Assembly: GCA_023898585.1 (NCBI GenBank)
Contig: CP060229.1
Span: 918,587 to 982,586 of the forward strand
Direction: 5' to 3'
From: Candidatus Nomurabacteria bacterium
GTDB lineage: Bacteria; Patescibacteriota; Minisyncoccia; Phycocordibacterales; UBA918
Length of the DNA stretch: 64,000 bases
The stretch's first letter is position 1, and each line of letters starts with the position of its first letter. Position numbers and translations under genes: made by a program. Under the pieces are notes generated by a model. The model ran no database searches. It saw only the letters and a program-made list of their open reading frames with translations, and was not told the DNA's origin. Shown here piece by piece: positions 6,082 through 52,242 of this stretch.

Positions 6082-6082
6082 A

Positions 6083-7405: not shown

Positions 7406-7477
7406 TTATACATTATGACATTGTGAAGTAGCTTTTTTTTCAGTCGTCCACAGAGTCAAATTTTTACAATAACTGAA

Positions 7478-9070: not shown

Positions 9071-12000
9071 TTAATCAGCTATTGCAGTGAACGTATTGAC
9101 TCCGCTGTGTGGATGACTGGCGGTACCAAACGGTACTTCAACCCCCCAATAAATATTATCGGCAACCGGAGGGTTATCTACCAGAGGTTTGGAGAGGTCT
9201 ACCTCGACATCTGCACCCGTTACAGACAACGAATTACAAGACGCACAGGCTGAATAATCAAAGGTCGAGGTTGCGAACACTTGTTTGGCTGCCGGAATAA
9301 TAGAAGCTATGCCATCGGTCATGTCGGTTCCGGAAATTTGAACATCAATTGCCTCGTTACCAAAGTTAAGTAACGAAGTCAACGGATTAAAGGTGCCGGT
9401 ATTCTGATTAATATCGAGCGTACCGTAACCAATAGCATTCTGCACATCTAGTGCTCGGAGAGTAAGCAACTCCACTCCAGGTGATGTTCCGAAGTCATTT
9501 GCCCCACCAGTGTCAGAAACTTCCATGAAGGCAAACCATTCTTCACCTCCATCCGCGTCAGTTGCGTCGGCGTGGAACTGAAAATCAGCTGAGCATGTGA
9601 GTGTGCACGAAGAACCAGCACAAGCACTGAAGACACAATCAGTACTTGAAGCTATATAACAATTGTTGTTGTCCGGAGTACAAGAGGCCCCAACCGTCGT
9701 TCGATAGAAAGTGGTGGTTGCACTCTGTAGGTCTGTGTAGCCGTTGTAGTCAGTAACCGTGGTTGTTGCTACGACCGTAGTGGTAGCTCCAGGAGTAAGT
9801 GCTATATCGAAACCTCCGTTTAGCACGATCGGGTCAAGTACAGGATCAAATTCTAGTGATAATTCCGGCAGTAACGCGTAAGAATCGAGGATATTGCCAC
9901 CATCTGTGACACGGAAACAGTAGGAATCATTTGTAGCGTTGGTTGTTAGTTTAATGGCGTACTCCAACTCTGTGTATTTATTTTGATCCACATCAATATT
10001 CGAAGTCTGGTTGCTTGTGTCAGAAACTATTTCTCCAGCAACGAACGGTCCAGCATCAGTCACCAGATGATCTGTTGTTGGGTCTCCATTCGTGGTACTG
10101 GCAGAAGTGGTCATACAGATGGCCGATGAACCGCAACTCGACAACACCGGAACCTGAACAAAAGACCCTCCAGAAACAGCCTGACAACTCGGTGCGGAGA
10201 GCTTTGGAGCAAATTCAAGCCTGAAGTTTTGGTTGACAATCGGCAACCCAGTATTCTCGATTCCGATTCTTAGTCTAGCAGTTTCGTCGTAGACAAATCC
10301 GCTTCCGAGCGTATTTTGTGGCGAAGCCCAACTAGCCCCACCAGCTTGTTGTTCGGCACCGAAGTGAACAGTTGGTTTTTTGTCGGTACGTGGCCATGCT
10401 ACATAACTGTCCCAACCGCCGTTCTGGAACCAGAACGTAAAGCCAATTCCTCCACTAGTGTAGGTACTGTCTGTGGCTGAAGTGGTTGCTACCAATGTAC
10501 CGGCGGAAGTATACACCTCAACATCAATATTGTTGTTAGTTTGCCAATCAATTTCCACTTCGTACCAACCGGTACTGAAGCTGATCGTAGACGAAGCTAA
10601 TACCGTTCCGGTTGAATCGGTATTGTGAACATTCTTCACCAACGAAACCCTGTCTGTTCCAAACTGTTCAAGACAAACAGCGTAATTTTGGTGAGCGGTG
10701 ACGGGTGACTGTACACCGAACATTGTACAAACTTCGTCTCCACTACCAGCAGTGGTGTCGATATATTGCATGTAGCGAATTATGTCACCTTGAGCAACTG
10801 TCATATCAAACCGCGCTATACCATTGTTTGTTTTGTCATTGGGGTTAGGTGAAGCGTCAAGCCCGAAACCACCGCCGTAAGCAAATGTTCCGGCTGTTGC
10901 TAGTTTTGTTGTGTCTCCAGAATATTCAGTGATATTGTTATCGTCAAAGTTGTCATAGGCTGTGAATACATTACTTATGTCTGAAGTTGTGTTAGCGCTT
11001 ACGTTTCCATAGTACATGTAGATTTCTGTCACACTGCTCGTTGCCATGGTTGGAATACGTACCCACACGTCAGCTTCATCTCCTGTGGTATACCGCTCCT
11101 TCCAGTAACCTATTTCCGTGACACCGGTAGCATCGGTAAACCTCAAGTCATCAAAGTCAGTTTGCATATCTGAGTCATAGGCTATATCCAATTTCACCGC
11201 GACATCCGTATAAGCTGAGGCTTCAGTATTAATGACCCGCACTCGCTGGCGAGAGCTCCAGTTTGAGTCAAACCATGTTCCCGACGGCGCTCCTTCTCCC
11301 CCATCATCATTTCTCCAGCGATAGGTCGTTTGTTCAGTTAGGAGACACTGACTATCATCCCATCGTACAGAGCTACAATCATCAGTGCCGTCGATATCAA
11401 ACGCTTCACCCCACAGATCTCCAATAGCACCCGTGAATGACCAACTATTAGTGGTTGTTGCATCAAGCGAAACGTTAGTGCCGGGCGTAAATCCACCATC
11501 AGCAAAACGAGTATTATTTATTATTAGTGAAGCATTTGCATTAAGAGTTGATGATGATAATGAGATAAGAACTGAGCTATTCAATCCCTGCTCAAAATCA
11601 CCGTAACTGATGGAAGTAATGTGCGCGTTATTTGTAAACTGTAGACCGGATGTGCCAAGATTACGGAATGAGTAGTAGTTGGCGTTGAAGGTACCGCTTT
11701 TAACAACGAAGTTATAGGTACCAGCTCCTTGGTTCGTGATAGTTGATGTTCCGTTAGCAATACCGATAATGTTAAGGGTTCCCCCGTCAAGCGTGATAGT
11801 GGAACTGCTGGCAACAGTAACACTAACATTTCGTGGTGAACCCCCGAGAGCGACTCCGTCAAAGTCGGTGGCTCGACTCCAGTACTCAGTGGTAACAGGA
11901 ATATGATAATCACCGTAAATATTTAATTTTCCGTTACTACCACCATGATCTTGTGAATACCAAGAGCCAGATAACGAAACAGTCGAGCTGGTCGCTGAAG

Positions 12001-15000: not shown

Positions 15001-18000
15001 CTACAAACACGTTACCATTACCCTGTAAATCCCAGACTGACCCGTAAGGACTGAAGAAATGGGCTGAAGAAACGGTAAGAACTCCTCTGACAGATGTTGT
15101 AGCAAGGCTAGCTGGTGTAGTTACTCCGGCTACTCCCGCGCTACCTAGAGTTAGATTATTAAATGTCCAACCTTGAGTTCCGCCTAATTTGTTGGTTTTT
15201 TTAACCTGTGTAGTTCCGCCTGACATATTAACTAAGCCATCCCCGCTGAAAGAACCGTTGTTTACCGTAACGTTAGCTACTCCGGACACTGTACCGGTCG
15301 AAACTGTAATCTTGGTTTGAGAAACAAGTGGAGTTTGTATCGCCCAACCACCGCCGATACCACCAAAAGCTATATCATAGAGAGTGACTGTGGAACTAGC
15401 TTGCGAACCGATAGACTGACCTGGATTAGTGGCAGTAAAACTCACCGTGCTTGAAGCGCCGGAAAAACTCGCTCCGGATTCCAAATATAACGAACCGCCG
15501 ATTGTGATGTCGTTGCTACCAGAGGCTAGTAAAGATCCCGATGACTTGATAAGTAAAGATCCGTCAGCCAAGGTTGAGCCGGAACCTGTCAAATCAATTT
15601 CACCGCCACTGTCGAACGTTCGATTATTCCAGACCACCAATCCAGTACCAGAATTGACGGTGAGCAAATCCGAGGAACCGATACTGGCAGTAAACGGCAG
15701 ATCACTTTCGTCGTCGTTATCAAATATAGACATGTCTGCAATAGATAAGGGGGTTATGTCTTCGTGTCTTACAATTACCCGGTCTTTATACAAATTCATA
15801 TCAGAAATGTTGCTTGCAACAGAAATAGGAGCAGGACGAAGCGCAAATTGACCGACGTTTACATCATCAACACTACCCCCCGTGAGAGTAGCAGCACCGG
15901 TCGCTCCCGCCGACGGCATTGATCGGCCAGCAACAGCCAATAGCCGGTTCGCTTGGACCAAGTCTTGAGCGTGCGTGGTCCAAGGAGAGCCGGGCATATC
16001 CATAGCAGAGTCGTCAATTACGTACCAGGCAGACAATACATAAGCGCCGTTGTGAGCAGTTGTTAAGCTCGGTGCACTCGGAGATGATGTGTTTTGCAAA
16101 TTACTCCAAGCCGGTGCAACATCAAACACGCCAGTAACATCTACACCACTAAATGAGCCGATCCAGTAAGAATATTCTTCAACCGTTGTATCGTTATTAA
16201 CAAAACTATAATTTACTGGTTCTCCTCCAGCATTGGTGATAACCTTGTACCAAATTGCCGTATACATTTGGTTACCGATTGATTCCAGTCTGTCAGCCCC
16301 CAATACCCATCCAGCCGATGGTGTCACTGAAAAATCATCTTCTTTACCAAGTATTACGACCAGAACATCTCCATTCTCGACAACCGGACGGTCGATAGTT
16401 ATGTTCGCTCCCGCATTTACCGTACCAAAACCGGTGGTTTGATCCCGCAATTCGACAGTTTCGTACGGTGATCCAGTATTACCAATCGGTGTTTTGGTGA
16501 CTGCTACTGCAGTTATTGAACCGGTGGCTGTTGGGCTAGAAGCGGGACGGAAAGCAAATTGTCCGGTTTGAGATTCACGAGTGGCAAAAACACCGTCCAG
16601 CTTAGCATCACCGGTTGCTCCCGCTGTGATCATTGAACGTGAAGAAACAGTAAGATTGTTAATAGCAGAATCAAGGATATTAGACGCTCTGGTATCCCAG
16701 TTATACACCGGCGGGATGACTTCGTTATCAATGTAAGCATACCAGGCAGACAAAACCAGTGCGCCATTAGTGACCGTTGTGACTTCGAGAGCGTCAGGAT
16801 TGGTAACGTCTTGGTACTTAGTCCAGGCACTTGCAACATCGACAGGGGTACCAGTATCAACATTGAGGAGCGAGCCCATCCAATAACTGAAACCCTCGCC
16901 GTTGTCGACAATTGGAAAATCATACGTGGCCGGCTCTGAGCTGGCGTCTGCCACAACCCGATACCAGATACCGGTCGCAATATCATCGCCAGTTGTATTA
17001 CCGAGAATATCGACGGCTGTCCATCCGGCTGGAGTGCCGAAGTTAATGTCGTCATCTTTACCGGCTATTAGCACCAATACAGCACCGTCAACTGTTGATG
17101 GTCTGCTGACGGTCATTATATTTCCGGCTGTTACACCATTGCCGGTTACTTCATCATAAATGGAAACATTAGTTTGCGATTCGGTTGCCTCGGAGTTTAG
17201 GTAAGTTGTAATCTGCGGTTCACCAACATAGGAAATTCCCGTTACTTCGAACGAACCGTCAATTGGATCGCAGGGTGCAGTGTAAGTAGTTACACCATCA
17301 AGCACGACTGTCACCACTTCCGTGGAAGCGTTGCAAACCGGATAGGTTTCTGGCATTACTCCATCGTCACTGTAAACAATACCGGAAATTGTTACCGCAA
17401 AATTACTATCATCCCACTGGATGGAGCCTGGATCACCGTCATCATTATCAAACGCTTCACCATAAATACTTCCACTACCACCAGAGAACAACCAGAAAGT
17501 CGAGGGGACACCTTCAGCCGTAACGTTGTAGGTGACGGTTTGGGCGGTGCTAGTTGAGTAAAACGCTTGCGGGTTAGTAAAGTTTAAGTATTCAGTGTTT
17601 ATCCAATTTGTTGAAGGTGTTGATGTGGCAAATCGTAATTCGTCTATGTTTATATCGAGGTACGTCGTTGTTTGGTAAGCACCGACACGTAATCCGGTGT
17701 TAGAGGGGTTGGCAGATGAGGTGATTTGGGTGACAGTATCACGCAAAACATTATCTTCATAAAATTCATTAGTTGCCCCATCAGCCGCTCTACCGATAGT
17801 GGTGAAGTGGTGCCATATGCCATTGTCACGGGCAAAATCATAGTCTCCCCCCGTAGTAATGCCGAAATAATGATAACCACGAGTCGCGGTGTTGTACCAC
17901 GGGAGAAAAGTCAAGTATGTTCCGTTGTTAGTTCCGTTACCGACTCCAAATTGCCACAGCGCTCCAGTATCGTTTCCTGTCATAAAGTACAGTCCGGATG

Positions 18001-24000: not shown

Positions 24001-27000
24001 ATGAACTGCCGGTTACTTCGGTGTTACTACTACCACCGTCAACATGTACTCCGGCCCAGGTTGAGTCATTATTAGAAGCGAGGGTGGCAAAAACAGCCGG
24101 AGCTGAACCGAAGGTGGGAGAAAACGAGACTGTTCTACCATTGTTGCTGGTTCCGTAGTTATCTGTGATGATTTCGGTCACCCCTTCTTCAGTACCAGCC
24201 ACAACCTGTAGTCCACTAGCGCCATCATCCAGTGTCCAACTGCCGGCCTCAAAGACTATGTAATCAACTACCGTTGTAACACCTCCGGATATTCCATTAT
24301 AATCATCGACCTTAACCTCGAAAGAATCGGCAGTTTTGTTTCTTACCCTAGCTGTACGTCCAACGTTATATGTTGGAGCAGCGTATTCTGGTGAAGCAAT
24401 AACAACCATATTTTTATACTCTCGTTGTGTCGAAACAGTCACCCAGTTGTTGTCGGTGATAGTTGTTGAGCCATACTCGCCAATCTCGTCGGTAATTTCT
24501 ACTGAATTGGTCGTAGAAGCAACCGTTCCGTCTAGAAAACCTTGATTGAATTGATCGCGAGTAGTTTGGAACCAAGTTGACAAAGTAACAGCTGTATCGA
24601 TCGTAAACGAATCTGGGGTTGACCATGGTGACCAAGCATTACCGCCATAAGGATCACGAGCACGGGTTTTCCACCAATAAGTAACCCCATCGACAAAAGG
24701 TGATCCTCCCGGAGTTGTAAAGTTTATTTGCTCTCCGGTATTAAACGGCGAGGTATCACCACCGGATTCAGCATTGTTAAACTGGGCACTCGTACTAGAA
24801 TTGTAAGTGGTTGAACCGGTTAAGAAATTGATGTCAGTGCTAAAAGAAATCTCATATTCAAGATCGTCACCCTGGGGATCAGTCGATATAAAATCAAAGA
24901 CCGGGGTTGTGGCTGAGGTTTTTTGGTTATCAAACAAGTCGCCTTGAGTTGGTGTTTCGACTCGTAAACCCCAACGAACAACCCAGTCCTGAATCGATAG
25001 AGTCGCTCCGGTTAAAGTAGCCACCAAACGTATTTCGTTGTAGATCGCTGTGTCCAGCTCCAACAAGCTGATAGGACCAGTGGATGTACCGAGACTGTTA
25101 CCGGGGATTATTGAATCAGGCACCAAATTCCAATTTCCGTTATCGTTATACTGTACCTGATACTTAATTTCCCCCGATGTTTCAGTGTCGTTCCAATCAG
25201 CCTCGCCCCAAGCATTACCAATGACCGCATCATCAAAATCGACCGCCGTTCCTATCATCGTTCCTGGACTTGAGGCAACTGAAACAGAACCACCACCGAC
25301 CGACACCCCTGAATTGGTATTGGTATTGAACTGGTCGTCTGTTGTTTGGAACCATTCCGAGACTGTTATTACTGTGTCTGTCGTAAAACTAAATACAGTT
25401 GACCAGTCACTACTGGTGGCTGACCCGTTGGGATCATTAGCTCTCACTCGCCAGTAGTAGGTAGTAGTAGGGGAAAGCTGAGTACTGCCCGTAAACTGGA
25501 TGCGGTCGCCGGAATTAAACGGGGATTTGTCTGATGGTGTAACTGTGTTGGAGAATTGTGTGAAATGTGTGGCAGAATTTCTATCTATGATCACTGAACT
25601 GAAGTCGTAATTATCGTCTATCTGTACCCGGTAGTCTATGTCATCGCCCGCTATATCAATGGCAGAAAATTCCAACACCGGAGTGAGAACGGTAGTGCGC
25701 TCGTTGTCGAAGAAAGAAAATAAGGTTGGCGTATTCGGCGGACCGACTGTTTCGAGTTCAGGGTAAAGTGTATAAGTCTCAAGCTCAGTTCCTTGTACCC
25801 TGGTTATTCGGAAACAGTAGTTTGTGTTCACTGCTACATTCGTGGCTTCGATCACCCAATCATGCTCAACCACTCCACCAACCGGTACATCATTCGGTAA
25901 GAAATCAGACGGACTCCTTTCTTCGTACGTTCCAGCTACGGTTGATGAAGCTAGTTTTAAGGTGGAAAGAGTTGCTCCATCCGAAACTCCTGAGTTATTG
26001 TAACCGGAAAAGACGGCTGTTGAACTACCCTGCTCTCCAAGTGGAAGCCAATCAGTAACCAAACTACACTGTCCGCTGTTACCAACTCCGTACTGTAAAG
26101 CAAATGAATTGGTGTCAACTGAACCGGTGGCGTTACTTGCCTCCAGACTGATGCGCAAACGCAAAATATCTCCATTACCAACCGCACCCGCTCCAGTTAT
26201 AGCTTCGCCTTCCGTCACTCCCTCGGAGCCAATCATCCAGGTGGTGGTTGGTGTTAGTCCACCTCCATTCTGATACCACCAGTAGGATAATTGCTCCCAT
26301 TCCGCATCAATAGCGAGCTCCTGCTCTCCAAACAAGTACGACAAGTTCTCAGCACCAAACTTACGACCTTGTACCGGACCGGATATATTCTTCTCGTCGT
26401 TATCATCACTAACGTCTTCATACATGACATAAAACGGAACCCCATTTGTTGCAACAACTTGGGTACCGGCCGCAAAGTTGGCAGAATCACCGTTGCCGGT
26501 TCCGTTTGTGAAGTAGGCTTTGCCGGGCTTTGTTGAGCCTGGAACACAGTTGGCTGATTCAATCAAACCTCCCACGCTGTCTTGTATTTCAATAGTCGAT
26601 GTCCCGAAACGAGGGGAACAAACAACTGCAATATAAGCACCGGTATTGGTGAGCGCGTACCTGGTTCCAAACTCGTGTTGTGGCCAAAATACTGATGAGT
26701 CGGTTCCATCGGAGTCAGCTTGTTGAATAGCCGAAATTGGACTTGCTTGTGCACTGAATCTAACGGCACTACCGGCCCCTTCAGCTGATGAGCTACAAGA
26801 AGCATCAGCTTCGTGATCACCCCTAGTTATACCGGTCACTGTTCCACCAGCTCCGGTTGAACAACTTGCGGTCGGATCGGAATTACTAGTCAAGGCTGAT
26901 AAGTGCATAAAGTTGGACATAACTCCAAAAAGATCCCTTGTTGTTGGCGGATAAGCCACGAGTCCGTCACCAGGATTCGTACTGCGGTGTACGACCAATA

Positions 27001-30000
27001 TTGGATAGGTCGACTCAATAACAATACCGTCACCATCTACTCCCTGACCAGAGTTTGGCAGGTCGGTATTTGAGGTTGCCACACTGCTGGTCGAAATATT
27101 GTGAGTCTCATCAGCAGAAGCAGATGCTGCTATGTAAGTCCGAACAGTGGTGCTGGCAAAAGGTGAATACATATACCAGCGGTTTGTGTTGCGGTTGGTT
27201 GGAATAGCAAAAGATGTAGAAGCAAAACTAACCGGAGCTATCATGTCGGAACCGTCAGTACCGGAGCCGGTAACTGTGCCTGAAATCGGACCAAGTGCAC
27301 TAACAACTGAAGCTCCAGTAAACGTAACGAAGGTGGTGATTTCACCCTGATTCAAGCTAATGGGTGTACCCCCATCTATTGCCACTTCATTATTGTCCAT
27401 CAAACTTTCCACCGAAACTTGTGTTCCGCCACTATCATCCACAACGTAGTACAAATCAGTGCTGGTGCTGTAGCTGAACGTTGCCAACTCATCACTTGCT
27501 GAACTGGCTCCACTGTTTCCGTAATACATGTAGATCAAGGTCTTTTGACCGGCCGGAACTGAGTCAACCTGTACCCAGATATCGGTTTCTTCATTAACAC
27601 TGTCGAAATGCTGAACCCAGAAATCTAATTCTTTAAACTGAGTAACATTTAACGATTCGACACTTGAAGTTGAGTAGAAACTTTCCGGTGACGCTTGGTT
27701 GTTATACTCGGTAGCTGCCCAACTCGCAGAACGGACAACACTAGCAATCCTCAACTCGTCTAAGAAACCTTCAAAGTTTTCAGTAGCACTAAAACCTCCA
27801 CCGAGCGAATCTTGATCCTGTCCTACTATAAGTCCACCATTTTCTATATTTAGAGGAGCGATTGGCTGTGGATCAGGGTTTTCGGTGTCTCCGACACCAT
27901 TAACGTAAATGTTCATCTCATCTATAGAATCTTCCGATGTAGTGATGTAATGTTGCCAGTTACCATTATTGTAATTGACGACTGTATCAGCAAGACCGAA
28001 AGTTTCACCCGCACCTTGAGAGTAAACGATGAGATTTACATCATTATCAAATCTCTCCCAAAACTCATTAAACTGTGTACTGTTGGCTCCGCTGAGGATT
28101 GTCTGATCACCAGACGAGGAAGAAATGTGCCACCAGGAAACCGAGTTATCACCAAGACCATTCATCACTTGATAAGGCAGGCTTATGTAGTCTGTCTGAC
28201 TATCTCCAAATTCTTGACCAGATCCTAAGCGACCATACTTTCCATTTGAAGTGTTTTCATCGTCTCCGTGGTAATTGTTAGCAGTTGAGTCTTTATATAC
28301 ATTTGGATTACCGGTCCCGACCGCACTTCCTTCCAGGTGATAAACCGCTTGGAAACCATTGGTCCAGACATTTTGTGCACCATAAGTCGCGGTTTTAGCA
28401 TAGGCGGTAGCGTCACTATTATTGAAGTAGATGTAATAGTCTTTGTCTTCAGTCGAAGTTAAGTCGGTCTTGAAATACAATTCCCCTGTCTTCGCACCAG
28501 TGTTTATATTCACCAGCTCAAACGGCAATTCCGTCTTACTATCTGCCATAGTCACTCTGATGTCACGACCATCTGAGGCAACATCAGCAAAGAAAGCGTC
28601 GCCTAAAGTGGACAAATCTACGTAAACAGGGAAATCAGCGATGTCTGAAGAAGCTTGTAGGGTGATCTTTTGACGACTATCCCAACTGGTCGAATACCAG
28701 CCACTCATACTATCGCCTCCGGTTAACCTACTGGTACTGGTTGAGTAGAAAGCAGTTGGGTTCGTTTGGTTTAAATGTTCTGTGGCTATCCAGCCCGAAG
28801 TAAATGGTGCGTCTTCGAAAGCAAATCTGAGCTCATCAATAATTCCTTCGTACGATCCACCGGTGGTATAACGACCAACCTGTAATCCACCAGTATTGGA
28901 CGGATTAGCTACATTCTGTATACCACTTAACTCAGCGACAGCATTGTCGTAAATTCCATGGAAACCACCGATATTGGCGGGAGCAATGGTGGTGAAGTGA
29001 TGCCACACGTTAATGTCACGAGACCAGGTAGTATTTTGATTAAGACCAAAATACAAGTAACCACGACCGGACGCAGCGGCATTCAAGTACCAGGGCATAT
29101 ATGAGGCCCAGTTCGGTGCGTTGTTTGTTCCCCATTGCCAAAGCGCTTCGGCCGAGTTTGCGGTCTGATAGTATAGACCGGTTGAGACCAAATCGTCTCC
29201 CCCAGGCAACGCCCAGTCATCTCCAACATCTCGTAGAATACCTGAGGAACCTCTTAAATCAAGCGCGGTACCCATGGCACCAGTAGTGGTTGCTAAAGAC
29301 GCCACTTCAACTTGGAGTTCCTGACCATTACCAGTTTCATCAGTGATGATGTTATTGATCGCAGTAGGGTCATCTGAGAAGTGATAAACAGCTTCGTAAT
29401 TCGACCAAACAGCCTGAGACCCGTATTGACTTGTCGAAGCATAGGCGGTTGCTGATGGATTATCAAAATAAATATGGAAAACATTGTCGGAAACACTACT
29501 TAGATTTCCAGCGAGAAAATGTAATTCCCCGGTTTCTGCTGTAGCGTCAATCTCCACCAAGTCATGAGGCACTTCTGTTGCACCATCACTTTTTGTGACT
29601 CTGATATCACGACCGTCTGAAGTGACTCCGTTCCAGAAATACGAGCCGAGCGTTGACAGATCAACAAAAACGGGAAAATCGCTGACACCTGAACTAACAC
29701 TAGTTGATGCTATAACGATGGCCAATCTGCCACCCCAGTTAACATTAAAAGCATTTTCAAATTGCGGACCGTTTCCGGGATACAAATTACCAACTGACGT
29801 TTCTTGCACGAACCGAATATCACTTCCGTCTGAGTTAACGTTAGCCCAAAAATCTGATAGAGCGCTGTCGATTTCAAAAAATACTTGTTGTTCAGTCAGA
29901 TCAGTCTTTCCGTTGGTGTTATCAACTAATATAGGTATTCGATACTGCCACTGTGAAGACCAGAATGGATCAAGAAGTCCGTATTCACTATCTCCAATAG

Positions 30001-32653
30001 CCTCTATCCAGTATTCACCGGAGGTGAAAGGAGGAAAAGAAATCTCCATTTTAAAGTACTTTGTCTCTCCCGGCTGAATTTGATAAGTGTCTGTCGTATG
30101 TGTTCGCACTTCAAACCGATCTGGCACCTCTTTTTTATCTGGGCCAAATCCGACAAAATCAGCAATTTTCTTTAGGAAACTGTCTGACTCTGGCATTTCT
30201 CCTTCATCAACCGGTTCCTCGTCCCAACCCGGCGCATACTTTTTGATAACGTGTTCACGAACTTTAACTTGATTTACCTGACAAGCAGTGTTGGCTCCAT
30301 CAAGCAAATCGCATTTGCGAACAACATTGGTATTGCGACAGCTGTACGCCGGAACTAGTTCTCCTTCGTATTCTGATTCTCCCGAAATTTCATCCGTGAC
30401 AACTTCCTCATTTACACCGGAATGCTCTGGCGATATATTTGTCTCTGCAGTCGAATTGGTTGCAGAAAATTGCAACAATTCAGAAAGATTAGGTAACAAA
30501 TTGAGTACCGTAGTAGTCGTGTTATCGGTTTCGCCTTCAATATCAGAGTAAGGTAAATCTGTGGTATCGGTAGACACTCCAAAGTCTACTTCGGGCAATA
30601 CATCTACAGTGCCGGTTGAGATGTTGGTGTCAGCAGTCTCTTGTTGGCTGTTCGTTTCAGAAATTACAGTTTCTTCCGCTCCAGCTTTTGTTGTTGGAAC
30701 AACCAACTGACGAGACAGCTCGTCTAATGAGCTCGGGATATACTCACCGGCGTATTCCCACCCATCTTCACAGTTGTACACGAAAGGACGATACTCGGGA
30801 ATTGTGGCGATACGAGGCTTATTTTGGTTAAACAATTCGAGACTCCTAACCTCACCAACACCATCCGGGAAGTAAGTCTGAACTGCAAAATCATCGACAC
30901 TATCACTGGTGTTAGTAACACTGAAGTATGTTGTCACCTCAGACAAACCACTGTAGACATTTTCGTCCGACTTTATTATCAAAGTCTCACCGTCGTTCTT
31001 ATCTGTGAACTTAAAATCTATTTCTTCACCATTCGGTAGTATCAACTTATCGCCCTTAAGAATAGAGTCATCATATCCATCTGCCTGTAGAAGTTCAAAA
31101 AAGTCAGTTGGCACTTCACCCTCCGGTGGTTCTAGCGTAAACAACTCCAGCCAAGCACTTTCCACGAAGAGATCTTCGACCACTTCGTAATCATCATCGT
31201 AACTAAGTTCCACGCTTAACGAATCAAAGGTTTGTTGGTTAACCACTTCCGGCAAGGCAAATAAGAAGTATCCTCCGTTTATACTATTTGAAACTTCCTC
31301 GTCTATCACGATAGAACCACCCTGACTCCAGGCCTGACCGCCATTAACTGAATATTTGACATTAAACATTGGTATATGTTCTCTGGTTGGCTTTTTCTTA
31401 GAAGCAAAGGAGAGGCGCAATTGCGCACCTGAAATCTCCACCCCTTCACCGAGAGGATAACCGAAATCTGAAAGAGTTATAGTGTGGGAAGCACAATTTT
31501 CAGAACATGGAACAACCGTTGGTTCAGCAAGATCACCAGTTTCGTGCTCCAACACAATTTCTTTATCTGTTGAAACGGATTCCACAGAATCGTCTGTCTC
31601 TTCTGTAACCGGTGGCGCGATTTCTGGTTTGACAATAGTCACGTCCGGGTCTGTGGATTGGATTAATGATGTCGTTAACGGCAGGAATGAACTCTGACCG
31701 TTTGTATCGATGTCGGTAAGGGTGTCAGTATTTGATAATTGTTCATAATCGCTTGATTCTGCATTTTCTTCCTCGCTAGAGTTTGTCGATGTTGATAAAC
31801 CTTCAGTTTCACCAACACTAATTTGAACTGTCGTTTCTTTAAGGTCATCACCTGGCAACTTCAACGCTGATTCCTCAGCCGAAGAAGCAGTATCAAATAA
31901 AGATGTAACTGAAGATAAAGCTAGTGTAAACAATGACTCGACCTTGCGCATAACAGTTGTTGTCGCAACGTCGACGATAGTATCTTCAGTTTCATCGCCT
32001 CCATCTTCAACTTTATTATCGGGTATGGCGGTATTATCCGTGGTTGTGGTTTGCGTCTCAGAGCCGGACGAACCCAACTCAGGTTCAACGTCGAAAGTAG
32101 ATGAAGCGATACCAAACTCAACGTTTGTTTCTTGTTTTGTTGTAGTGATTTCGTCTTCAATAAAATCATCAACAGGCTCATTACTTTGCGATTGTGAATC
32201 TGAGTCACTAGTATCAGCTTTACTGTTAGATGATTTTTCCAAATCGCTAATATCAAGAGTAGCTGAATTGATATGATTAAATTCTTGAATTAGAGCATAC
32301 TCACTTAGGTTTTGAAAACTAAGCGTTTCGATATTTTTCCAACCAACTGCTTCCACATTAGTTGGAAAAACATTAACTGTTCTTACCGTGTAAGCATTAC
32401 TCGACGGCTGTGCATTAACATAGGGCAGTACAGCGATGAGCAACAGTGTTATTGTACTTATCGCTAAGTGTCTTTGTTTTTTACTTAAATTTAAGTTAAC
32501 ACCACAAACAACCCGCTTTTCTGAAATTAGCGCTTTAAACAATGCTTTTATTCGATTTTTTATTACTTTGTGAAAGGTTTCTTTTTTCACTAGTACACCA
32601 CGCCTCGTTCTATCGAGATAGAACGAGAGGCCAATTATAAGTATACCGCGCAT
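9071..32653 (-). CDS. Giant secreted/cell-surface multi-repeat protein (7,860 aa). It has an N-terminal signal peptide and an acidic S/T/D/E-rich disordered region. It has at least 8 DUF2341-like modules (W.YR..I.I...DFPVYVDL...DGRDIRVT...LP.ELVE.D...GELHF...FYIYF(D/N)N) alternating with LamG/ConA-like domains. It also carries beta-helix-like G/T/S repeats, Fn3-like units (YYWRVRANDPNG..., YWWKTRARDPYG...) and a Cys-rich C-terminal module.
   Basis: Uninterrupted 23.6-kb ORF. Signal-like segment LAISTITLLLIAVLPYVNA|QPSS around aa 60-81. A canonical DUF2341 copy lies at aa 7127-7217 (nt about 11003..11275; WSSRQRVRVIN...DDLRFTD...EIGYWKERY...ADVWVRIP...TEIYMYYGN). Other copies near aa 900, 975, 1320 and 1675 and several more. 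The start codon is uncertain: the ATG at 32653 gives an 80-aa N-region, and a TTG at about 32542 is an alternative. Confidence 0.9.
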   Translation of the reverse strand: MRGILIIGLSFYLDRTRRGVLVKKETFHKVIKNRIKALFKALISEKRVVCGVNLNLSKKQRHLAISTITLLLIAVLPYVNAQPSSNAYTVRTVNVFPTNVEAVGWKNIETLSFQNLSEYALIQEFNHINSATLDISDLEKSSNSKADTSDSDSQSQSNEPVDDFIEDEITTTKQETNVEFGIASSTFDVEPELGSSGSETQTTTTDNTAIPDNKVEDGGDETEDTIVDVATTTVMRKVESLFTLALSSVTSLFDTASSAEESALKLPGDDLKETTVQISVGETEGLSTSTNSSEEENAESSDYEQLSNTDTLTDIDTNGQSSFLPLTTSLIQSTDPDVTIVKPEIAPPVTEETDDSVESVSTDKEIVLEHETGDLAEPTVVPCSENCASHTITLSDFGYPLGEGVEISGAQLRLSFASKKKPTREHIPMFNVKYSVNGGQAWSQGGSIVIDEEVSNSINGGYFLFALPEVVNQQTFDSLSVELSYDDDYEVVEDLFVESAWLELFTLEPPEGEVPTDFFELLQADGYDDSILKGDKLILPNGEEIDFKFTDKNDGETLIIKSDENVYSGLSEVTTYFSVTNTSDSVDDFAVQTYFPDGVGEVRSLELFNQNKPRIATIPEYRPFVYNCEDGWEYAGEYIPSSLDELSRQLVVPTTKAGAEETVISETNSQQETADTNISTGTVDVLPEVDFGVSTDTTDLPYSDIEGETDNTTTTVLNLLPNLSELLQFSATNSTAETNISPEHSGVNEEVVTDEISGESEYEGELVPAYSCRNTNVVRKCDLLDGANTACQVNQVKVREHVIKKYAPGWDEEPVDEGEMPESDSFLKKIADFVGFGPDKKEVPDRFEVRTHTTDTYQIQPGETKYFKMEISFPPFTSGEYWIEAIGDSEYGLLDPFWSSQWQYRIPILVDNTNGKTDLTEQQVFFEIDSALSDFWANVNSDGSDIRFVQETSVGNLYPGNGPQFENAFNVNWGGRLAIVIASTSVSSGVSDFPVFVDLSTLGSYFWNGVTSDGRDIRVTKSDGATEVPHDLVEIDATAETGELHFLAGNLSSVSDNVFHIYFDNPSATAYASTSQYGSQAVWSNYEAVYHFSDDPTAINNIITDETGNGQELQVEVASLATTTGAMGTALDLRGSSGILRDVGDDWALPGGDDLVSTGLYYQTANSAEALWQWGTNNAPNWASYMPWYLNAAASGRGYLYFGLNQNTTWSRDINVWHHFTTIAPANIGGFHGIYDNAVAELSGIQNVANPSNTGGLQVGRYTTGGSYEGIIDELRFAFEDAPFTSGWIATEHLNQTNPTAFYSTSTSRLTGGDSMSGWYSTSWDSRQKITLQASSDIADFPVYVDLSTLGDAFFADVASDGRDIRVTMADSKTELPFELVNINTGAKTGELYFKTDLTSTEDKDYYIYFNNSDATAYAKTATYGAQNVWTNGFQAVYHLEGSAVGTGNPNVYKDSTANNYHGDDENTSNGKYGRLGSGQEFGDSQTDYISLPYQVMNGLGDNSVSWWHISSSSGDQTILSGANSTQFNEFWERFDNDVNLIVYSQGAGETFGLADTVVNYNNGNWQHYITTSEDSIDEMNIYVNGVGDTENPDPQPIAPLNIENGGLIVGQDQDSLGGGFSATENFEGFLDELRIASVVRSASWAATEYNNQASPESFYSTSSVESLNVTQFKELDFWVQHFDSVNEETDIWVQVDSVPAGQKTLIYMYYGNSGASSASDELATFSYSTSTDLYYVVDDSGGTQVSVESLMDNNEVAIDGGTPISLNQGEITTFVTFTGASVVSALGPISGTVTGSGTDGSDMIAPVSFASTSFAIPTNRNTNRWYMYSPFASTTVRTYIAASASADETHNISTSSVATSNTDLPNSGQGVDGDGIVIESTYPILVVHRSTNPGDGLVAYPPTTRDLFGVMSNFMHLSALTSNSDPTASCSTGAGGTVTGITRGDHEADASCSSSAEGAGSAVRFSAQASPISAIQQADSDGTDSSVFWPQHEFGTRYALTNTGAYIAVVCSPRFGTSTIEIQDSVGGLIESANCVPGSTKPGKAYFTNGTGNGDSANFAAGTQVVATNGVPFYVMYEDVSDDNDEKNISGPVQGRKFGAENLSYLFGEQELAIDAEWEQLSYWWYQNGGGLTPTTTWMIGSEGVTEGEAITGAGAVGNGDILRLRISLEASNATGSVDTNSFALQYGVGNSGQCSLVTDWLPLGEQGSSTAVFSGYNNSGVSDGATLSTLKLASSTVAGTYEERSPSDFLPNDVPVGGVVEHDWVIEATNVAVNTNYCFRITRVQGTELETYTLYPELETVGPPNTPTLFSFFDNERTTVLTPVLEFSAIDIAGDDIDYRVQIDDNYDFSSVIIDRNSATHFTQFSNTVTPSDKSPFNSGDRIQFTGSTQLSPTTTYYWRVRANDPNGSATSSDWSTVFSFTTDTVITVSEWFQTTDDQFNTNTNSGVSVGGGSVSVASSPGTMIGTAVDFDDAVIGNAWGEADWNDTETSGEIKYQVQYNDNGNWNLVPDSIIPGNSLGTSTGPISLLELDTAIYNEIRLVATLTGATLSIQDWVVRWGLRVETPTQGDLFDNQKTSATTPVFDFISTDPQGDDLEYEISFSTDINFLTGSTTYNSSTSAQFNNAESGGDTSPFNTGEQINFTTPGGSPFVDGVTYWWKTRARDPYGGNAWSPWSTPDSFTIDTAVTLSTWFQTTRDQFNQGFLDGTVASTTNSVEITDEIGEYGSTTITDNNWVTVSTQREYKNMVVIASPEYAAPTYNVGRTARVRNKTADSFEVKVDDYNGISGGVTTVVDYIVFEAGSWTLDDGASGLQVVAGTEEGVTEIITDNYGTSNNGRTVSFSPTFGSAPAVFATLASNNDSTWAGVHVDGGSSNTEVTGSSLRVALAKSMSGLSHSGGEDIDYLLISTGSGSNNGTAMQILNTGALVDDTQSNGGYNQSISGFSVAPQTTIVQNNAENGGNGAFVFKDLSGSQTSANLFLSAIEIGAGANAHGGQEVASVFALESSSGVITRLNGGNLTGTFIGEDIIFSDGAGPKFDNFSWNATTPGASTVNIKMQYQVSEGVYALIPNSQIPGNSAGTTTTPIDLTGVDINLYPVIRAYATLSCASGNCPTLDDWKLEWSEGVNMSGTLKEYDRLTNVATGTIRAAVNGAPVAGSATVASGLWTLPNVTAFNGDVITVWVDGGTSESEEAVSVFVYDGLGDITGVELFEQHLSISADEESTVTNTSLASYDNTVSADEDIFIDVDAFGNLRVCSVGSCSEANIYIGPGNKYVPSVAPAVSINAHDFVNDGTIELDSNTINISGSWDNNATSSTDISTINLTAATGTESISSTETPLKFHNLSFGSGAGDATFTIPNALDLSGNLTVASGTFNRASHKINLAGSLTNGAGGYWLGTATTTFDGAVGLTWTDNNPVPQNVGDVVIDGASAFVSITTDVSAYDITIGGNDTLAGGTGNTIYVGGDWTNNGTFNAGTSNVEIVNDDRTYPPVIPGSADWYADTNFLDRIPVIIDNNEVPGDLTNFPVYIDLSLLGEDFWNSVTSNGRDIRVTSGNGQTELPYDLVEFDSVSKTGELHFLAGSISSSATTTFFIYHNNTSASAYGIGDTYGRNAVWTGYEAVYHFKDDPTVVGFNITDATGNGKDLQVQTEALATTTGKLGTAIDFTGTANGYLLDSDWTWTAGDRLESSGWYQMSAASSEALWSWGTGTAFNFMPWYSGATTGYHRFGSANGAFTFDFGPRDTVNWQHFTTLGATSTSEQVYTYVNTILRDSPTQLTANPTDSGLQIGRYTTAGSITALVDELRFATTKRSTDWIETEYNNQNSPEIFFATSSVQTYQPDQIIDEATHNIDSGGSSFYKLTFNDATTSPAFTEPSVVVNNNFTIATGTVSLPTGILTVGGSFLNSGYFMHNNAQVKFTAGSNASVTLNGTEFFNTLYNVTFAGAGNFTFTDINATSSNDFVINNGNVTLPGGILTIGGTLTTTGGGFNANGGTVVFSSQANENVTTKGSSFNNVIFGLENSSAGWYGVDWGERIAINVASTAVSSDLVDFPVYVNLSNLGTEFWSGVATDGRDIRMTTSGGKTEIPVEIVEFDYITKTGELHFLAPSLSSEVDTTFYLYFDNVDAVAPAVDSTYGAEAVWVNYEAVYHFNEDPTLGVSDVSGHDKDLLPLVGTPSTTPGLLGTAIDLTTSNVMMGDSDWTWTAGEDLISSGLYFMTAVDTGALWEWSNACNNDNCMAFMPWYSGDIGYHRFGETTGNDYTFTRNNTIWHHFTTIGRAANGEPVEIYEDNILRDTYTQTATGQNPGLTGLQIGRYTGGTYMDIDIDELRFSTTTPSTGWVTTEYKNLTDVNNFYSTSTQSYLDVVPSFTLNEATSDADGDVSIYYSNLVAPTNNFTIGGSALNVEGSFNANNATTTFDSNDTGETVEFGEQAFHNLSFNGVGGGWTIATTTVNNNASLVTGASFTLATNTTMTVSGRFKNQFNSVATTWSGSTLVLTGGDYTVTGRLDSGDDYATLVVSGDSDLIIWNSSISTSSIKDTSSLYMPDFSGTPGILRIYGSYERTSGTEYWSYDTDFDGTDLTGGGERVAQVEVGRGASIYLGTSTTLEAKGVPGSTTTVSAVTGIYSLNVNAGTLDAEYASFQNVGPKGLYLTNGTTVTSLTSVDFAVSGGRSGMTVDVATMNAQPSSEFTGMTFGTSTSNGIYEPEWSDQVVLTIQSGIINEDHIEYPVYVDLSLLGDVFWSNVKADGGDIRVTTDNGSELPIDLVEINTSAKTGELYFLAPKILANTDKVFYIHFNNPSATKYSNSDEFGANQVWINYEAVYHFNEDPTVSITDMTGNGRSLVPTIGSMSTTSGLLGTALDTTGGNTRLENPSWTWTSGEDLISSGLYFMTGNDTGALWQFGVGNGTNNGTYLTFLPWYNTATRGYHYFGITTGGDYDFARDNGIWHHFTTIGRAADGATNEFYEDNVLRDTVTQITSSANPSNTGLRVGAYQTTTYLDINIDELRFATSTPSTNWINTEYLNFTNPQAFYSTSTAQTVTYNVTAEGVPSTFWLFSGGSGSIYGEAFDNDDGDPGSIQWDDSNFAVTISGIVYSDDGVMPETYPVCNASTEVVTVVLDGVTTYTAPCDPIDGSFEVTGISYVGEPQITTYLNSEATESQTNVSIYDEVTGNGVTAGNIMTVSRPSTVDGAVLVLIAGKDDDINFGTPAGWTAVDILGNTTGDDIATGIWYRVVADASSEPATYDFPIVDNGEGFSYWMGSLLNVDTGTPVDVASAWTKYQDVTNPDALEVTTVTNGALVLSAWYAYIDNEVIPPVYNWDTRASNILDSAINNLTVSSRSMITAGATGDAKLDGVFATRESQTGQFAFRPASSPTATGSITAVAVTKTPIGNTGSPYETVELRDQTTGFGTVNAGANITIDRPVVENGDVLVVILGKEDDFSVTPSAGWVLGADRLESIGNQMYTAIWYKVITNAGGEPVNYSFVNNDTTVEEYSYWIGSFSGVDVTGVFDVAPAWSNLQNTSSPSAPSLTTAHNGAYVLSAWYVIDDSAMDMPGSPWTTHAQDLVQANRLLAVAGRSMPSAGATGAATLTGGSVDDVNVGQFALRPAPISVASNISDMNLYKDRVIVRHEDITPLSIADMSIFDNDDESDLPFTASIGSSDLLTVNSGTGLVVWNNRTFDSGGEIDLTGSGSTLADGSLLIKSSGSLLASGSNDITIGGSLYLESGASFSGASSTVSFTATNPGQSIGSQASSTVTLYDIAFGGIGGGWAIQTPLVSQTKITVSTGTVSGVANVTVNNGSFSGDGLVNMSGGTTQVKKTNKLGGTQGWTFNNLTLGSAGVAGVTTPASLATTSVRGVLTVSSAHFFSPYGSVWDLQGNGNVFVENGTFIEGTSTIRYSGATPNIKQTPYYNLTVDTDRGGSVVATAPVTGLQILNNLTVGILGTSTLNANTNDPVLAVGENLRIGTLGLIEASNSKTMTVNGNWNNDGVFNANGGVVTLSNTAGASTISAGVSPFATLNVAGSANYTFDESATTTGPLTINTTSFTLNPGLTLAVGGTFTNSMADVNTTWTGSTLSLYSGTAFPINTKSTGDTYNTIITGNGTHPRLWNSTTSAIVTNGVSSLYSMNHKGVKGDLYIFGDYVNDGFNDYWSYGEDFDGSALAIKRKANVRIEAGGSVLYPSGSLYIIGSSTASTTIYTQTPGTYQFTVGGDTETEMSYYTFRDTTIDGLTFTGAPNVIDLSNGDFEVAIADGSTMTVGGTVISANPAMEFNYIKMATTTPINAYNVTATGTSNSAWRFVNVYGNLGGEAKDVDPGGDPGYITWQDSAAIINISGNVYSDEGVSVSHACDSTTPNIYLSINGSTYATTTCNGDGAGGGTGAYSFTGINYGLGNTLTVYIDNEPEKAVTVTQDPVSSISNFDLYENRVIIKHEGAVAMKIADMETWDSDDDPDVLFDAEIGATDTLVLPPDTKLIVWDNKKFTPDGHVTIPGGGSGSAYDGTFELRPGATFNGGSNEIYTIGGSLISGASAVFDPGQSTTTFTTSGAGRTVDTNGGGFYSLSFTGVGSWTVSDTELLVGGDLTIANGAVTLPPATTTIAGSLSNTGGTFDSNGGLLKFTASDAGNKVRFGGSDATTVLFSGGASGSWTMLDVNATATDSFRVATGTVTLPSGILVVGDDFIVDDAVTHNGGTVNVTGAGGANLVTLSGNDLSSLIVEAGAGDYTLTDTSAAFLGDLLVQSGGFTVGAGTVSVGGSFDATGGTFTHSNGTLLFNSSDTGETIDPGANDLYNVVIAGAGGGWTVVDNATTTNNFTLSLGNSFTQSTGTRLYVGGVFTNNVGGTATEWIGSTLVLDSGTEYETNVKTTPTERYNKIVIGNNTDVSSWNASATSSTVSLSGSWYSQDHGGSNGKLNIYGDYHIPVTTEYWSRATDFDGVALGGSPRNVSVTVASSSTITLDGGTLNIIGIANGTSTITNQGAGTYNFVVKSGTFNANYYSFRNLGTSGLQFTNNAHITSISYGDFEQGLNSSVLISLSSSTLNANASLIINNTRFADGGFTPGTNVSLDATTTNSWSFTGAIGDLWGEAFDIDGTDDCSSVRWDDSQCLLTEQTTYRWRNDDGGEGAPSGTWFDSNWSSRQRVRVINTEASAYTDVAVKLDIAYDSDMQTDFDDLRFTDATGVTEIGYWKERYTTGDEADVWVRIPTMATSSVTEIYMYYGNVSANTTSDISNVFTAYDNFDDNNITEYSGDTTKLATAGTFAYGGGFGLDASPNPNDKTNNGIARFDMTVAQGDIIRYMQYIDTTAGSGDEVCTMFGVQSPVTAHQNYAVCLEQFGTDRVSLVKNVHNTDSTGTVLASSTISFSTGWYEVEIDWQTNNNIDVEVYTSAGTLVATTSATDSTYTSGGIGFTFWFQNGGWDSYVAWPRTDKKPTVHFGAEQQAGGASWASPQNTLGSGFVYDETARLRIGIENTGLPIVNQNFRLEFAPKLSAPSCQAVSGGSFVQVPVLSSCGSSAICMTTSASTTNGDPTTDHLVTDAGPFVAGEIVSDTSNQTSNIDVDQNKYTELEYAIKLTTNATNDSYCFRVTDGGNILDSYALLPELSLEFDPVLDPIVLNGGFDIALTPGATTTVVATTTVTDYNGYTDLQSATTTFYRTTVGASCTPDNNNCYIASSTDCVFSACAGSSCTLTCSADFQFHADATDADGGEEWFAFMEVSDTGGANDFGTSPGVELLTLRALDVQNAIGYGTLDINQNTGTFNPLTSLLNFGNEAIDVQISGTDMTDGIASIIPAAKQVFATSTFDYSACASCNSLSVTGADVEVDLSKPLVDNPPVADNIYWGVEVPFGTASHPHSGVNTFTAIAD

Positions 32654-32671
32654 CTCACGTGAGACGCGCGG
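32646..32671 (-). promoter_or_regulatory. GC-rich 26-nt near-perfect palindrome (ccgcgcatctcacgtgagacgcgcgg) centred on CACGTG. It overlaps the annotated ATG of the giant gene and is a candidate operator or mRNA leader hairpin.
   Basis: 13-nt arms with one mismatch. The mismatch becomes a G-U wobble in the minus-strand (mRNA) orientation. Embedded in an otherwise AT-rich intergenic region. Confidence 0.35.
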
Positions 32672-32694
32672 TAATTTAAAATTTCTGTGGATTA

Positions 32695-34843: not shown

Positions 34844-34939
34844 ACTTTAATATTATACTCACTCCGTCCTTTCAAAAAATCATTTACCCACACTTTTACT
34901 TTGTAGCTCATTAACACAGTGGTTATCTGCCAGTCAGTA

Positions 34940-52224: not shown

Positions 52225-52242
52225 GACCAACTCAAGAAGTAA

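Follow-up and report, generated by a model that had tools for sequence, protein, structure and literature searches.

What does a single reading frame that fills more than a third of a 64-kb window encode, and is it a real gene? The window, meaning the whole stretch of 64,000 nucleotides analyzed here, belongs to contig CP060229.1 of a Candidatus Nomurabacteria bacterium, and the open reading frame (ORF) in question, hereafter the giant, runs along its minus strand at 9071..32653. A preliminary description, made before any database search, had called it one uninterrupted 23.6-kb ORF for a surface protein of 7,860 aa, built from at least eight DUF2341-LamG modules. Few uncultured bacteria are as abundant as Paceibacteria, most of which are believed to spend their lives on the surface of other cells; their mode of attachment is known mainly from Saccharibacteria. 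The closed genomes of relatives measure about 1 Mb, and in a genome of that size the 23.6-kb gene alone would account for about 2%.

An intact and conserved gene

The frame was open from end to end, 7,860 codons and a stop, and covered 36.8% of the window, so that both the uninterrupted ORF and its share of over one third were as first described. With 3 of the 64 codons being stops, the chance expectation for 7,860 open codons is about e^-377. Self-BLAST of 250-aa fragments returned internal protein repeats of 30-58% amino-acid identity, and the longest DNA repeats inside the gene were 29-63 nt long and 60-84% identical, with none beyond either limit. Repeat collapse was therefore no concern, because the internal repeats appear to be old and there are no long near-identical DNA repeats. 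Contigs of the same strain in three other assemblies (ENA ERZ27309344, SRR15882951, and SRR26387399) matched at 100% identity across the final 498-965 aa and the genes downstream, and all of these short-read contigs ended within the giant gene. A 1,969-aa fragment in a protein collection was identical to giant aa 5056-6957.

Colinear orthologues, 44-72% identical, were present in a total of more than 25 other genomes and metagenome contigs of Paceibacteria (Parcubacteria). Across 11 species-representative genomes (labelled Candidatus Nomurabacteria HK-STAS-PATE-26/27/28/30, Parcubacteria CG_2015-02_43_9, Kaiserbacteria, and Paceibacterota, among others) the C-terminal 1,025 aa aligned at 44-72% identity; the frame stayed open for at least 4,355 aa, up to the edge of the fetched DNA, in 10 of the 11, and 5 gave a single 4,360-residue alignment with the window at 61-68% identity. 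Thirteen metagenome loci carried the giant N-terminus with the frame open to the end of the contig or locus, up to 4,407 aa, and colinear orthologues with open frames were found at no fewer than 23 other loci. About 90 public fragments matched the C-terminal 760 aa at 41-76% identity, most of them over the full length of the query. Exact 37- and 41-nt patterns taken from the gene did not occur in the species-representative genomes or in the JGI metagenome contigs. The closer homologues that bore a lineage name were assigned to Paceibacterota, Kaiserbacteria, Nomurabacteria, Parcubacteria, or Minisyncoccia, apart from a few metagenome-assembled genomes labelled Saccharibacteria, Acidimicrobiales, or Bacteroidota, which may be mis-binned. 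The preliminary description had asked for a check against mis-assembly or a chimera, and the colinear orthologues and the identical independent fragments supply the answer: the giant ORF is a genuine, conserved gene.

Three relatives carried frameshifts in the gene: the frame changes about 19 times in GCA_041389005.1 and once in an ENA contig (L005), and in CP064968.1, a closed Kaiserbacteria genome, the gene is split into 5,626 and 994 aa. The frameshifts lie at different positions in these relatives and are no shared feature; they resemble sequencing errors or local decay. Illumina Nextera adapter sequence stands at the start of the ENA contig from which L005 comes. The loci at which we noted a broken gene were L004 and L011 (GCA_041389005.1), L017 (CP064968.1), L018 (GCA_041389025.1), and L005, and sequencing error is the probable cause.

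Module composition, a nested DUF2341, and export

To count the modules we built a profile from the giant's own copies, searched it against the giant, and repeated the search with full copies only. Six full DUF2341 domains and five LamG-like segments were recovered (Table 1). The proposed eight or more DUF2341-LamG modules did not hold up; there are instead five complete pairs (A1 to A5), a C-terminal DUF2341 joined to a different beta-domain, and one split DUF2341 that had been overlooked, which makes seven DUF2341 domains. The halves of the split copy, aa 898-956 (profile positions 2-59, 39.5 bits) and aa 1673-1721 (profile positions 58-105, 25.7 bits), scored as one domain over positions 2-105 when joined (64.8 bits), and the gap of about 710 residues between them corresponds to two complete DUF2341-LamG modules, A1 and A2. 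As the halves are exactly complementary around two whole modules, the profile points to a domain nested in a domain and not to tandem duplication, with a seventh DUF2341 apparently split at about profile position 58 by the insertion of two modules. The split arrangement was also present in orthologues. In an AlphaFold2 model of aa 890-1745 both halves had a predicted local distance difference test score (pLDDT) below 50; the two may or may not fold together as one domain.

Both families named in the preliminary description were borne out. For DUF2341 (PF10102, gathering score 23.4 bits), Pfam scores above the cut-off were 49.2 bits at aa ~1674-1727, 40.0 and 24.8 bits for module A5 in two overlapping pieces (aa ~4747-4823), and 61.9 bits at aa 7166-7241; module A3 fell just under it at 19.9 bits, and the remaining copies were tied in by the self-built profile at E values of 1e-52 to 1e-58. 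The expected motif family (W..R..I.I, DFPVYVDLS.LG..FW, DGRDIRVT, GELHF, IYF.N, and YEAVYHF) was present in the translation, as were segments ending in IDELRFA...TEY.N...FYSTS. The LamG part of module A2 matched Pfam Pentaxin (PF00354) at 43.3 bits (cut-off 25) and, in the PDB, neuronal pentraxin 6ype at E 1.9e-5, while A1, A3, A4, and A5 gave no LamG-type match in Pfam when the giant was searched in 906-aa pieces at E<=0.01. When the 5 window paralogues were aligned with 15 orthologous segments, PF13385 (Laminin_G_3) was matched by 5 of the 20 LamG-like segments (best E 1.5e-13), the output not specifying which; the first segment scanned, that of window module A4, had no PF13385 match. Many homologues carry precomputed matches to both PF10102 and PF13385.

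The predicted fold agreed with these assignments. The model of aa 890-1745 had a mean pLDDT of 76, with two DUF2341 domains above 90, and Foldseek matched it to AbnA domain 4 (5hon_A, template modelling score (TM) 0.72) and to pentraxins (TM 0.53-0.62), and further to a trans-sialidase lectin domain, botulinum toxin Hc-N, laminin LG, and neurexin LNS. These matches to concanavalin A (ConA)-like folds had E values of 1e-6 to 3e-9 and do not specify which of the two LamG segments in the model was matched. Profile and predicted jelly-roll fold together place the segments in the LamG/ConA-like superfamily.

The C-terminal 640 aa had been described as a canonical DUF2341, a jelly-roll, and a Cys-rich end. 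The first (the 61.9-bit match, nt ~10931-11158) and the last were recovered, but the beta-domain at aa 7250-7435 taken for a jelly-roll is by sequence no relative of the LamG modules (hhalign probability 0.5%). The AlphaFold2 model of the last 760 aa (pLDDT 95.1) was a chain of beta-sandwiches like those of integrin legs and of macroglobulin/complement MG domains, and it contained no enzyme fold.

Elsewhere in the protein, three modules with the (D/E)YWS(Y/R)..DFDG anchor motif (aa 4397-4698, 6008-6331, and 6751-7105), the two Fn3-like units, backed by Pfam Ig_Rha78A_N and Pur_ac_phosph_N, and the acidic low-complexity N-terminal region were all found as expected. The Gly/Thr/Ser (G/T/S)-rich stretches repeat with a period of about 77-79 residues; they may form the beta-helix ascribed to them earlier, but they matched no family or fold. 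Ice_binding (PF11999) matches on C-terminal homologues were considered as evidence for a beta-helix and set aside, as they belong to a different N-terminal domain of shorter paralogous or split forms. When each half of the giant was compared with the PDB by sequence, only the pentraxin for module A2 came back; PDB profile searches with the G domain, the LamG modules, and the C-terminal beta-domain returned nothing credible, and neither did Pfam at E<=1 on ten unassigned segments. A faint H_lectin lead lay near aa 2840 and was likewise faint in one orthologue. Nothing in the giant was recognized as an enzyme or toxin fold.

The duplicated G domain (15830-17167, aa 5163-5608), with the motifs GKDDD, FSYW.GS, VLSAWY, and GQFAFRPA, had 223 representative relatives, many of them stand-alone proteins of about 230 aa that lack a signal peptide. 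These gave no Pfam match and a few weak matches to phage families (phrog_3329 and phrog_13624), and the G domain appears to be an uncharacterized domain family.

Identity per module between species was 53-81%, and 72% for the C-terminal cassette. Distant orthologues (L012, L013, L014, L015, and L016, compared over window aa 3100-7860) differed by whole modules: module A5 (aa 4698-5040) was missing in L012, L014, and L015, one orthologue had about 360 aa extra after aa 3314, and one was without module A3 and both G domains. At one locus (L041; JGI 3300053785 contig Ga0535658_0000208, 1-11849) three consecutive genes stand where the others have one giant, the first of at least 2,874 aa, followed by genes of 1,959 and 1,282 aa. 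The third begins with its own signal peptide and carries the giant's C-terminal cassette, and the second and third each carry Ice_binding.

The giant's first ATG (32653) is part of the 3' arm of a 13-bp hairpin with a perfect stem; a second hairpin, its stem about 11 bp long, comes next (region 32570-32700, fold z-score -6.3). A promoter-like site (32730-32701) precedes both hairpins and the signal peptide follows them; about 50 nt upstream of the ORF there is a sigma-70-like site. The leader had no Rfam family match; the hairpins may form a leader or regulatory element, or they may mark where the upstream transcript ends. Orthologues start just 10-30 residues ahead of the equivalent hydrophobic segment. 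Since the annotated ATG is inside a hairpin arm and orthologues begin right before the signal peptide, the true start is more likely an in-frame GTG at 32590 or TTG at 32542. The 7,860-codon frame stands, and its product is about 7,800 residues long.

The sole hydrophobic segment of the giant, aa 61-81, is followed by VNA↓Q, and the signal peptides of orthologues end in VHAQ, VYAE, AYAQ, or FAQ. The cysteines occur in close pairs, as expected of an extracellular protein, and the giant is predicted to be exported through Sec. Signal peptide, paired cysteines, and domain types all fit the surface protein of the preliminary description, but the surface location itself is something that we infer.

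Function of the giant and alternative readings

The giant lies in a conserved block of ten genes, which comprises a dockerin protein, Hsp20, a membrane cohesin, the giant, an Fn3 protein, an ATP-binding cassette (ABC) ATPase and permease of MacB/FtsX type, two membrane-anchored proteins, and a dockerin protein. The downstream genes were syntenic in every relative with available DNA (at least 10 genomes), and the upstream trio in 16 of 16 metagenome loci, even at distant loci where cohesin identity is just 35%. Linkage to the Fn3 protein and the MacB-type ABC pair had been noticed before, correctly, but the cohesin, the two dockerin proteins, Hsp20, and the two membrane-anchored proteins had been missed. 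One of the latter, of 623 aa, shares the giant's C-terminal domain (9074-9841; 31% identity, E 3e-19), which ends in G.NTFTA. Because it is kept intact and colinear across many species, always in the ten-gene block, the giant is a strong candidate for a core host-interaction device.

We hypothesize, with moderate confidence, that the giant is a long multivalent carbohydrate-binding surface fibre that attaches the ultrasmall cell to glycans of a host or substrate. By analogy with giant adhesins, an exported string of beta-modules with five lectin-type heads, encoded in a conserved block of surface genes, would act in this way. The protein of about 7,800 residues, built almost wholly of beta-sandwich, jelly-roll, and solenoid-like modules, would be exported by Sec, and its five lectin-type heads would bind glycans on the host or substrate. 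It would be held at the membrane via the conserved C-terminal cassette and the membrane-anchored 623-aa paralogue, an anchoring suggested by the last cassette domain, which the two proteins have in common. The type VII ABC pair would help to release, assemble, or mechanically operate the complex; we give it a helper role because MacB, LolCDE, and FtsEX transmit force to extracytoplasmic partners and are not known to pump across the membrane. The hypothesis draws support from a cultivated Saccharibacterium whose epibiotic growth requires dockerin, Fn3, and lectin-like envelope proteins, for which host glycans have been proposed as targets (PMC10633639).

Several observations weigh against a fibre of this kind. 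Beyond the signal peptide no wall or membrane anchor was found in the giant, which ends in ...GVNTFTAIAD with no LPXTG/sortase signal and no hydrophobic segment past aa 81. Neither dockerin nor cohesin was found in it (by Pfam, by a search for the dockerin Ca-loop motif, or by BLAST similarity to the neighbouring cohesin and dockerins), and with no anchor, dockerin, or cohesin of its own its retention at the surface is conjecture. Glycan binding is uncertain because LamG/ConA-like folds also mediate protein-protein contacts. No module was hypervariable between species, unlike a receptor in a strong arms race with a host. More than half of the giant (e.g. aa 386-897, 1736-2300, 2710-3500, and 5042-7105) had no Pfam or PDB family and may hide an unrecognized activity. 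Finally, the synteny may in part reflect shared ancestry and not function, as all syntenic genomes fall in one class.

We put forward a bolder version of the fibre reading only tentatively and consider it doubtful: the giant and its nine syntenic neighbours would be a dedicated and hitherto undescribed surface machine of Paceibacteria, whose mechanotransmitting ABC pair would spend ATP on deploying, tensioning, or releasing a host-capturing lectin fibre of about 800 kDa. If true, this would be an energized attachment organelle distinct from type IV pili, and the nested DUF2341 and the three-gene L041 locus would mark how such fibres grow and split in evolution.

Other functions were weighed against the same evidence. 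We think it unlikely that the giant is a structural component of the envelope or of a fibre (a spacer, a sheath, or a scaffold like a surface layer (S-layer)) whose lectin-like modules bind the cell's own wall polymers. An all-beta composition rich in Thr, Gly, and Ser, conservation that is uniform along the protein (53-81%) without a hypervariable tip, a C-terminal cassette resembling rigid multi-Ig "legs," and the membrane-anchored partners and Hsp20 of the locus would all suit such a role. However, lattice-forming S-layer proteins are usually much smaller; Pfam found no S-layer homology or wall-binding domain, and five DUF2341-LamG heads with gain and loss of modules between species fit ligand binding better.

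An improbable reading, too, is that the giant serves as the substrate-binding arm of a cellulosome-like complex, capturing polysaccharide or glycoconjugate nutrients alongside enzymes and further proteins that dockerins attach to the membrane cohesin. In its favour, the giant keeps strict synteny with the cohesin and two dockerin proteins, its LamG/ConA-like modules look like carbohydrate-binding modules of the AbnA domain 4 kind, and a GH18 gene lies 10 kb away (42559-43791). Yet the giant has no dockerin, cohesin, or glycoside-hydrolase domain, the dockerin proteins hold only Ig-like and Cys-rich repeats and no recognizable enzyme, and the ABC pair is of MacB/FtsX type, not a sugar importer.

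That the giant is a contact-dependent toxin or predation effector, of the CdiA/FhaB type or akin to the cell-wall-degrading giants of predatory bacteria, seems very unlikely to us. Giant genes of Omnitrophota have been linked to cell-wall degradation (bioRxiv 10.1101/2023.11.21.568195), and some giant Patescibacteria proteins have FhaB-like repeats (PMC11809585). In this giant, however, Pfam and PDB sequence searches found no domain of two-partner secretion (TPS) and none of a hydrolase, protease, or toxin, the C-terminus carries a beta-sandwich cassette that is conserved between species (72%) in place of a variable toxin tip, and the gene that follows encodes the Fn3 protein and nothing immunity-like. 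Hardly credible is an assembly artefact or pseudogene, produced by repeat collapse, chimeric joining, or decay: same-strain short-read contigs do break within the gene and three relatives are frameshifted, but in differing places, and against this stand the 7,860 open codons, the open colinear orthologues at 23 or more loci, the identical independent fragments, and the lack of near-identical internal DNA repeats.

Among known systems, the giant proteins of Patescibacteria are the nearest kind. The Patescibacterium danicum paper counted 149 Patescibacteria proteins of more than 4,000 aa at NCBI, 82 of them with FhaB and/or DUF2341, and proposed adhesion and domain shuffling for these giants (PMC11809585). 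The protein described here shares with them the phylum, the size class, the variable number of DUF2341 domains, and the predicted export, and it belongs to that known kind, which is defined by a length above 4,000 aa, an origin in Patescibacteria, and one or more DUF2341 or FhaB domains; Pfam and NCBIfam scans gave no match to FhaB (COG3210). The orthologues are already public, mostly as fragments named "DUF2341 domain-containing protein, partial." That paper went no further than a census and saw no full-length homologues for its own giants (PMC11809585), whereas the protein described here has many colinear full-length orthologues and a fixed neighbourhood.

The same two-domain unit of DUF2341 and Laminin_G_3 (PF10102 and PF13385; COG5306) is known from both Bacteria and Archaea and was seen in homologues 400-1,400 aa long, whereas the giant repeats the unit five times in about 7,800 aa and has one DUF2341 with two units nested in it. 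In some Paceibacterota relatives DUF2341 is fused to a type IV pilin N-terminus (PF07963 or PF08334), which places the domain outside the cell. We found no experimentally demonstrated function for DUF2341 in the literature searched.

More distant parallels were also compared. An ultrasmall obligate symbiont among the Nanohaloarchaeota (DPANN) likewise secretes very large multidomain proteins, the SPEARE proteins, which are believed to bring about contact with its host (PMC9563170). They are archaeal and showed no sequence relationship to the giant. No protease or nuclease domain was found in the giant. SPEARE proteins contain LamG, protease, and nuclease domains. The giant resembles giant adhesins of Gram-negative bacteria of the repeats-in-toxin (RTX)/type I secretion system (T1SS) kind, such as LapA, SiiE, and MpIBP, in its long string of beta-sandwiches, its ligand-binding modules, and the ABC transporter gene alongside. 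Those adhesins bear C-terminal RTX repeats and a T1SS signal, and HlyD and TolC accompany their T1SS-type ABC exporter; the giant has no RTX or Hemolysin-type Ca-binding match, it carries an N-terminal Sec signal, and its neighbours are a MacB_PCD and FtsX permease with a LolD/FtsE-like ATPase. Nor did it look like a protein of two-partner secretion (FhaB/CdiA), as there were no such Pfam matches, the C-terminus is conserved, and an Fn3 gene lies downstream; with no cohesin or dockerin module within it, it is neither a cellulosomal scaffoldin nor a dockerin subunit. The locus as a whole recalls the Csc/WxL clusters of Firmicutes in encoding several secreted surface proteins, one of which (1832-2785) is distantly related to a WxL-interacting-protein peptidoglycan-binding-domain protein (PF06030). 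No WxL-domain or LPXTG protein was found at the locus, and a giant protein and a cohesin-dockerin pair are not known as parts of Csc/WxL clusters.

In the literature searched we did not find a description of the colinear conservation of the giant, of the fixed ten-gene block with cohesin-dockerin and type VII ABC genes, of a C-terminal domain common to the giant and a membrane protein, of the nested DUF2341, or of the three-gene variant. Many short database entries named as partial DUF2341 proteins are fragments of one giant gene. DUF2341 thereby gains a well-defined extracellular, lectin-associated context, and the locus is a concrete conserved target for structural, binding, and expression work.

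Coordinates, neighbouring genes, and other loci in the window

Table 1. Features of the giant and its neighbouring genes in the window (residues are those of the 7,860-codon frame).
Feature	Coordinates (strand)	Residues	Basis or remarks
Signal peptide h-region and A-x-A-type site	32405..32473 (-)	61-83	...LLLIAVLPYVNA↓Q; conserved in orthologues
Short conserved N-terminal domain	32252..32404 (-)		VRTVNVFP..GW.N.E..FQN..EYAL.QEFN.INSA; orthologues
Acidic Ser/Thr-rich low-complexity region	31499..32251 (-)	135-385	D+E 24%, S+T 30%
Conserved N-terminal regions	29963..31498 (-)	386-897	No family match; second acidic linker 661-760
N-terminal half of split DUF2341	29774..29962 (-)	898-960	Self-built profile
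Module A1	28721..29749 (-)	DUF2341 969-1093; LamG-like 1094-1311	Profile, predicted fold
Module A2	27650..28696 (-)	DUF2341 1320-1441; pentraxin/LamG-like 1454-1668	Pfam, profile, predicted fold
C-terminal half of split DUF2341	27449..27649 (-)	1669-1735	PF10102 49.2 bits and profile
Family-specific region and Ig-like region	25754..27448 (-)	1736-2110; Ig-like 2111-2300	No family match
Fn3-like units flanking repeat C1	24545..25732 (-)	Fn3-like 2308-2443, 2567-2703; C1 2464-2561	
Possible H-type-lectin-like region, C2, and G/T/S-rich solenoid-like region	22154..24526 (-)	2710-3020; C2 3023-3124; solenoid-like 3130-3500	H-type-lectin likeness weak
Module A3	21140..22150 (-)	DUF2341 3502-3626; LamG-like 3627-3838	
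G/T/S-rich repeat D1	20576..21115 (-)	3847-4026	Period ~78 aa
Module A4	19568..20575 (-)	DUF2341 4027-4151; LamG-like 4152-4362	
E1 module	18560..19465 (-)	4397-4698	EYWSYDTDFDG motif
Module A5	17534..18547 (-)	DUF2341 4703-4826; LamG-like 4827-5040	DUF2341 Pfam 40 bits
F1, G1, G2, and H1	15410..17530 (-)	F1 5042-5161; G1 5163-5371; G2 5400-5608; H1 5614-5748	
Second block: G/T/S-rich, E2, F2, H2, D2, and E3 modules	11339..15409 (-)	5749-7105	
C-terminal canonical DUF2341	10937..11272 (-)	7128-7239	Pfam 61.9 bits
C-terminal cassette	9074..10906 (-)	Beta-domain 7250-7435; Ig-like 7440-7600; Cys-rich 7605-7860	AlphaFold2 pLDDT 95, all-beta
Secreted protein with two Fn3 domains	7478..9061 (-)		Starts 9 nt past the giant stop; syntenic in all relatives examined
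Type VII (MacB/LolCDE/FtsEX-like) ABC pair	4870..7405 (-)		440-aa ATPase and MacB_PCD+FtsX permease
623-aa protein with N-terminal membrane anchor	2890..4761 (-)		C-terminal ~250 aa homologous to the giant's C-terminal domain
317-aa protein with signal peptide and C-terminal membrane anchor	1832..2785 (-)		Distant relative of WxL-interacting-protein-like gene 37322-38413
Secreted dockerin protein	730..1830 (-)		DUF4215, Big_6, Dockerin_1
Cohesin protein with signal peptide and membrane anchor (its aa 407-437)	32804..34354 (-)		Directly upstream of the giant in every locus with the giant N-terminus
Hsp20 and second dockerin protein (Big_6, Dockerin_1)	34376..36889 (-)		Conserved upstream of the cohesin gene

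The ABC pair matched Pfam MacB_PCD (69.6 bits), FtsX (60.7 bits), and ABC_tran (113 bits). The best NCBIfam matches were DarD, LolD, FtsE, and MacB for the ATPase and LolCE and MacB for the permease. As all of these were under the equivalog cut-offs, the pair belongs to the type VII superfamily but lies outside its named orthologue groups. The ATPase has a C-terminal extension of about 210 aa (6086-6718), and its total length of 440 aa is kept in all relatives. Pfam gave no match for this extension or for the 623-aa and 317-aa neighbours. A strong terminator-like hairpin lies past the 623-aa gene.

[quoted passage not shown] A literature search found no paper on cohesin or dockerin in Parcubacteria, and in a broader one the sole mention of a dockerin-domain protein was in a Saccharibacterium.

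Other genes of the window lie farther from the giant. At 50202-54569 there is a cluster of secreted proteins with camelysin/TasA-type N-terminal signals, which looks like a fibre locus of the SipW/TasA style; N-terminal Peptidase_M73 matches (52243-53571 and 53652-54569) adjoin a gene like S26 signal peptidases (51632-52216) and a lamin-tail-domain protein. An IS200-like Y1 transposase gene lies at 47914-48588. UmuC-like (IMS, 39970-41256) and UmuD/LexA-like (Peptidase_S24, 43781-44269) genes are found about 2.5 kb apart, with a 347-aa gene that has no Pfam match (41314-42357) and the GH18 gene between them, and a CAP-domain gene (44262-45443) follows the Peptidase_S24 gene. No tRNA genes were found in the 64-kb window. 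It contains 36 ORFs of at least 150 aa, 6 of them on the plus strand, including 3 inside longer minus-strand ORFs, and its cumulative GC skew falls steadily.

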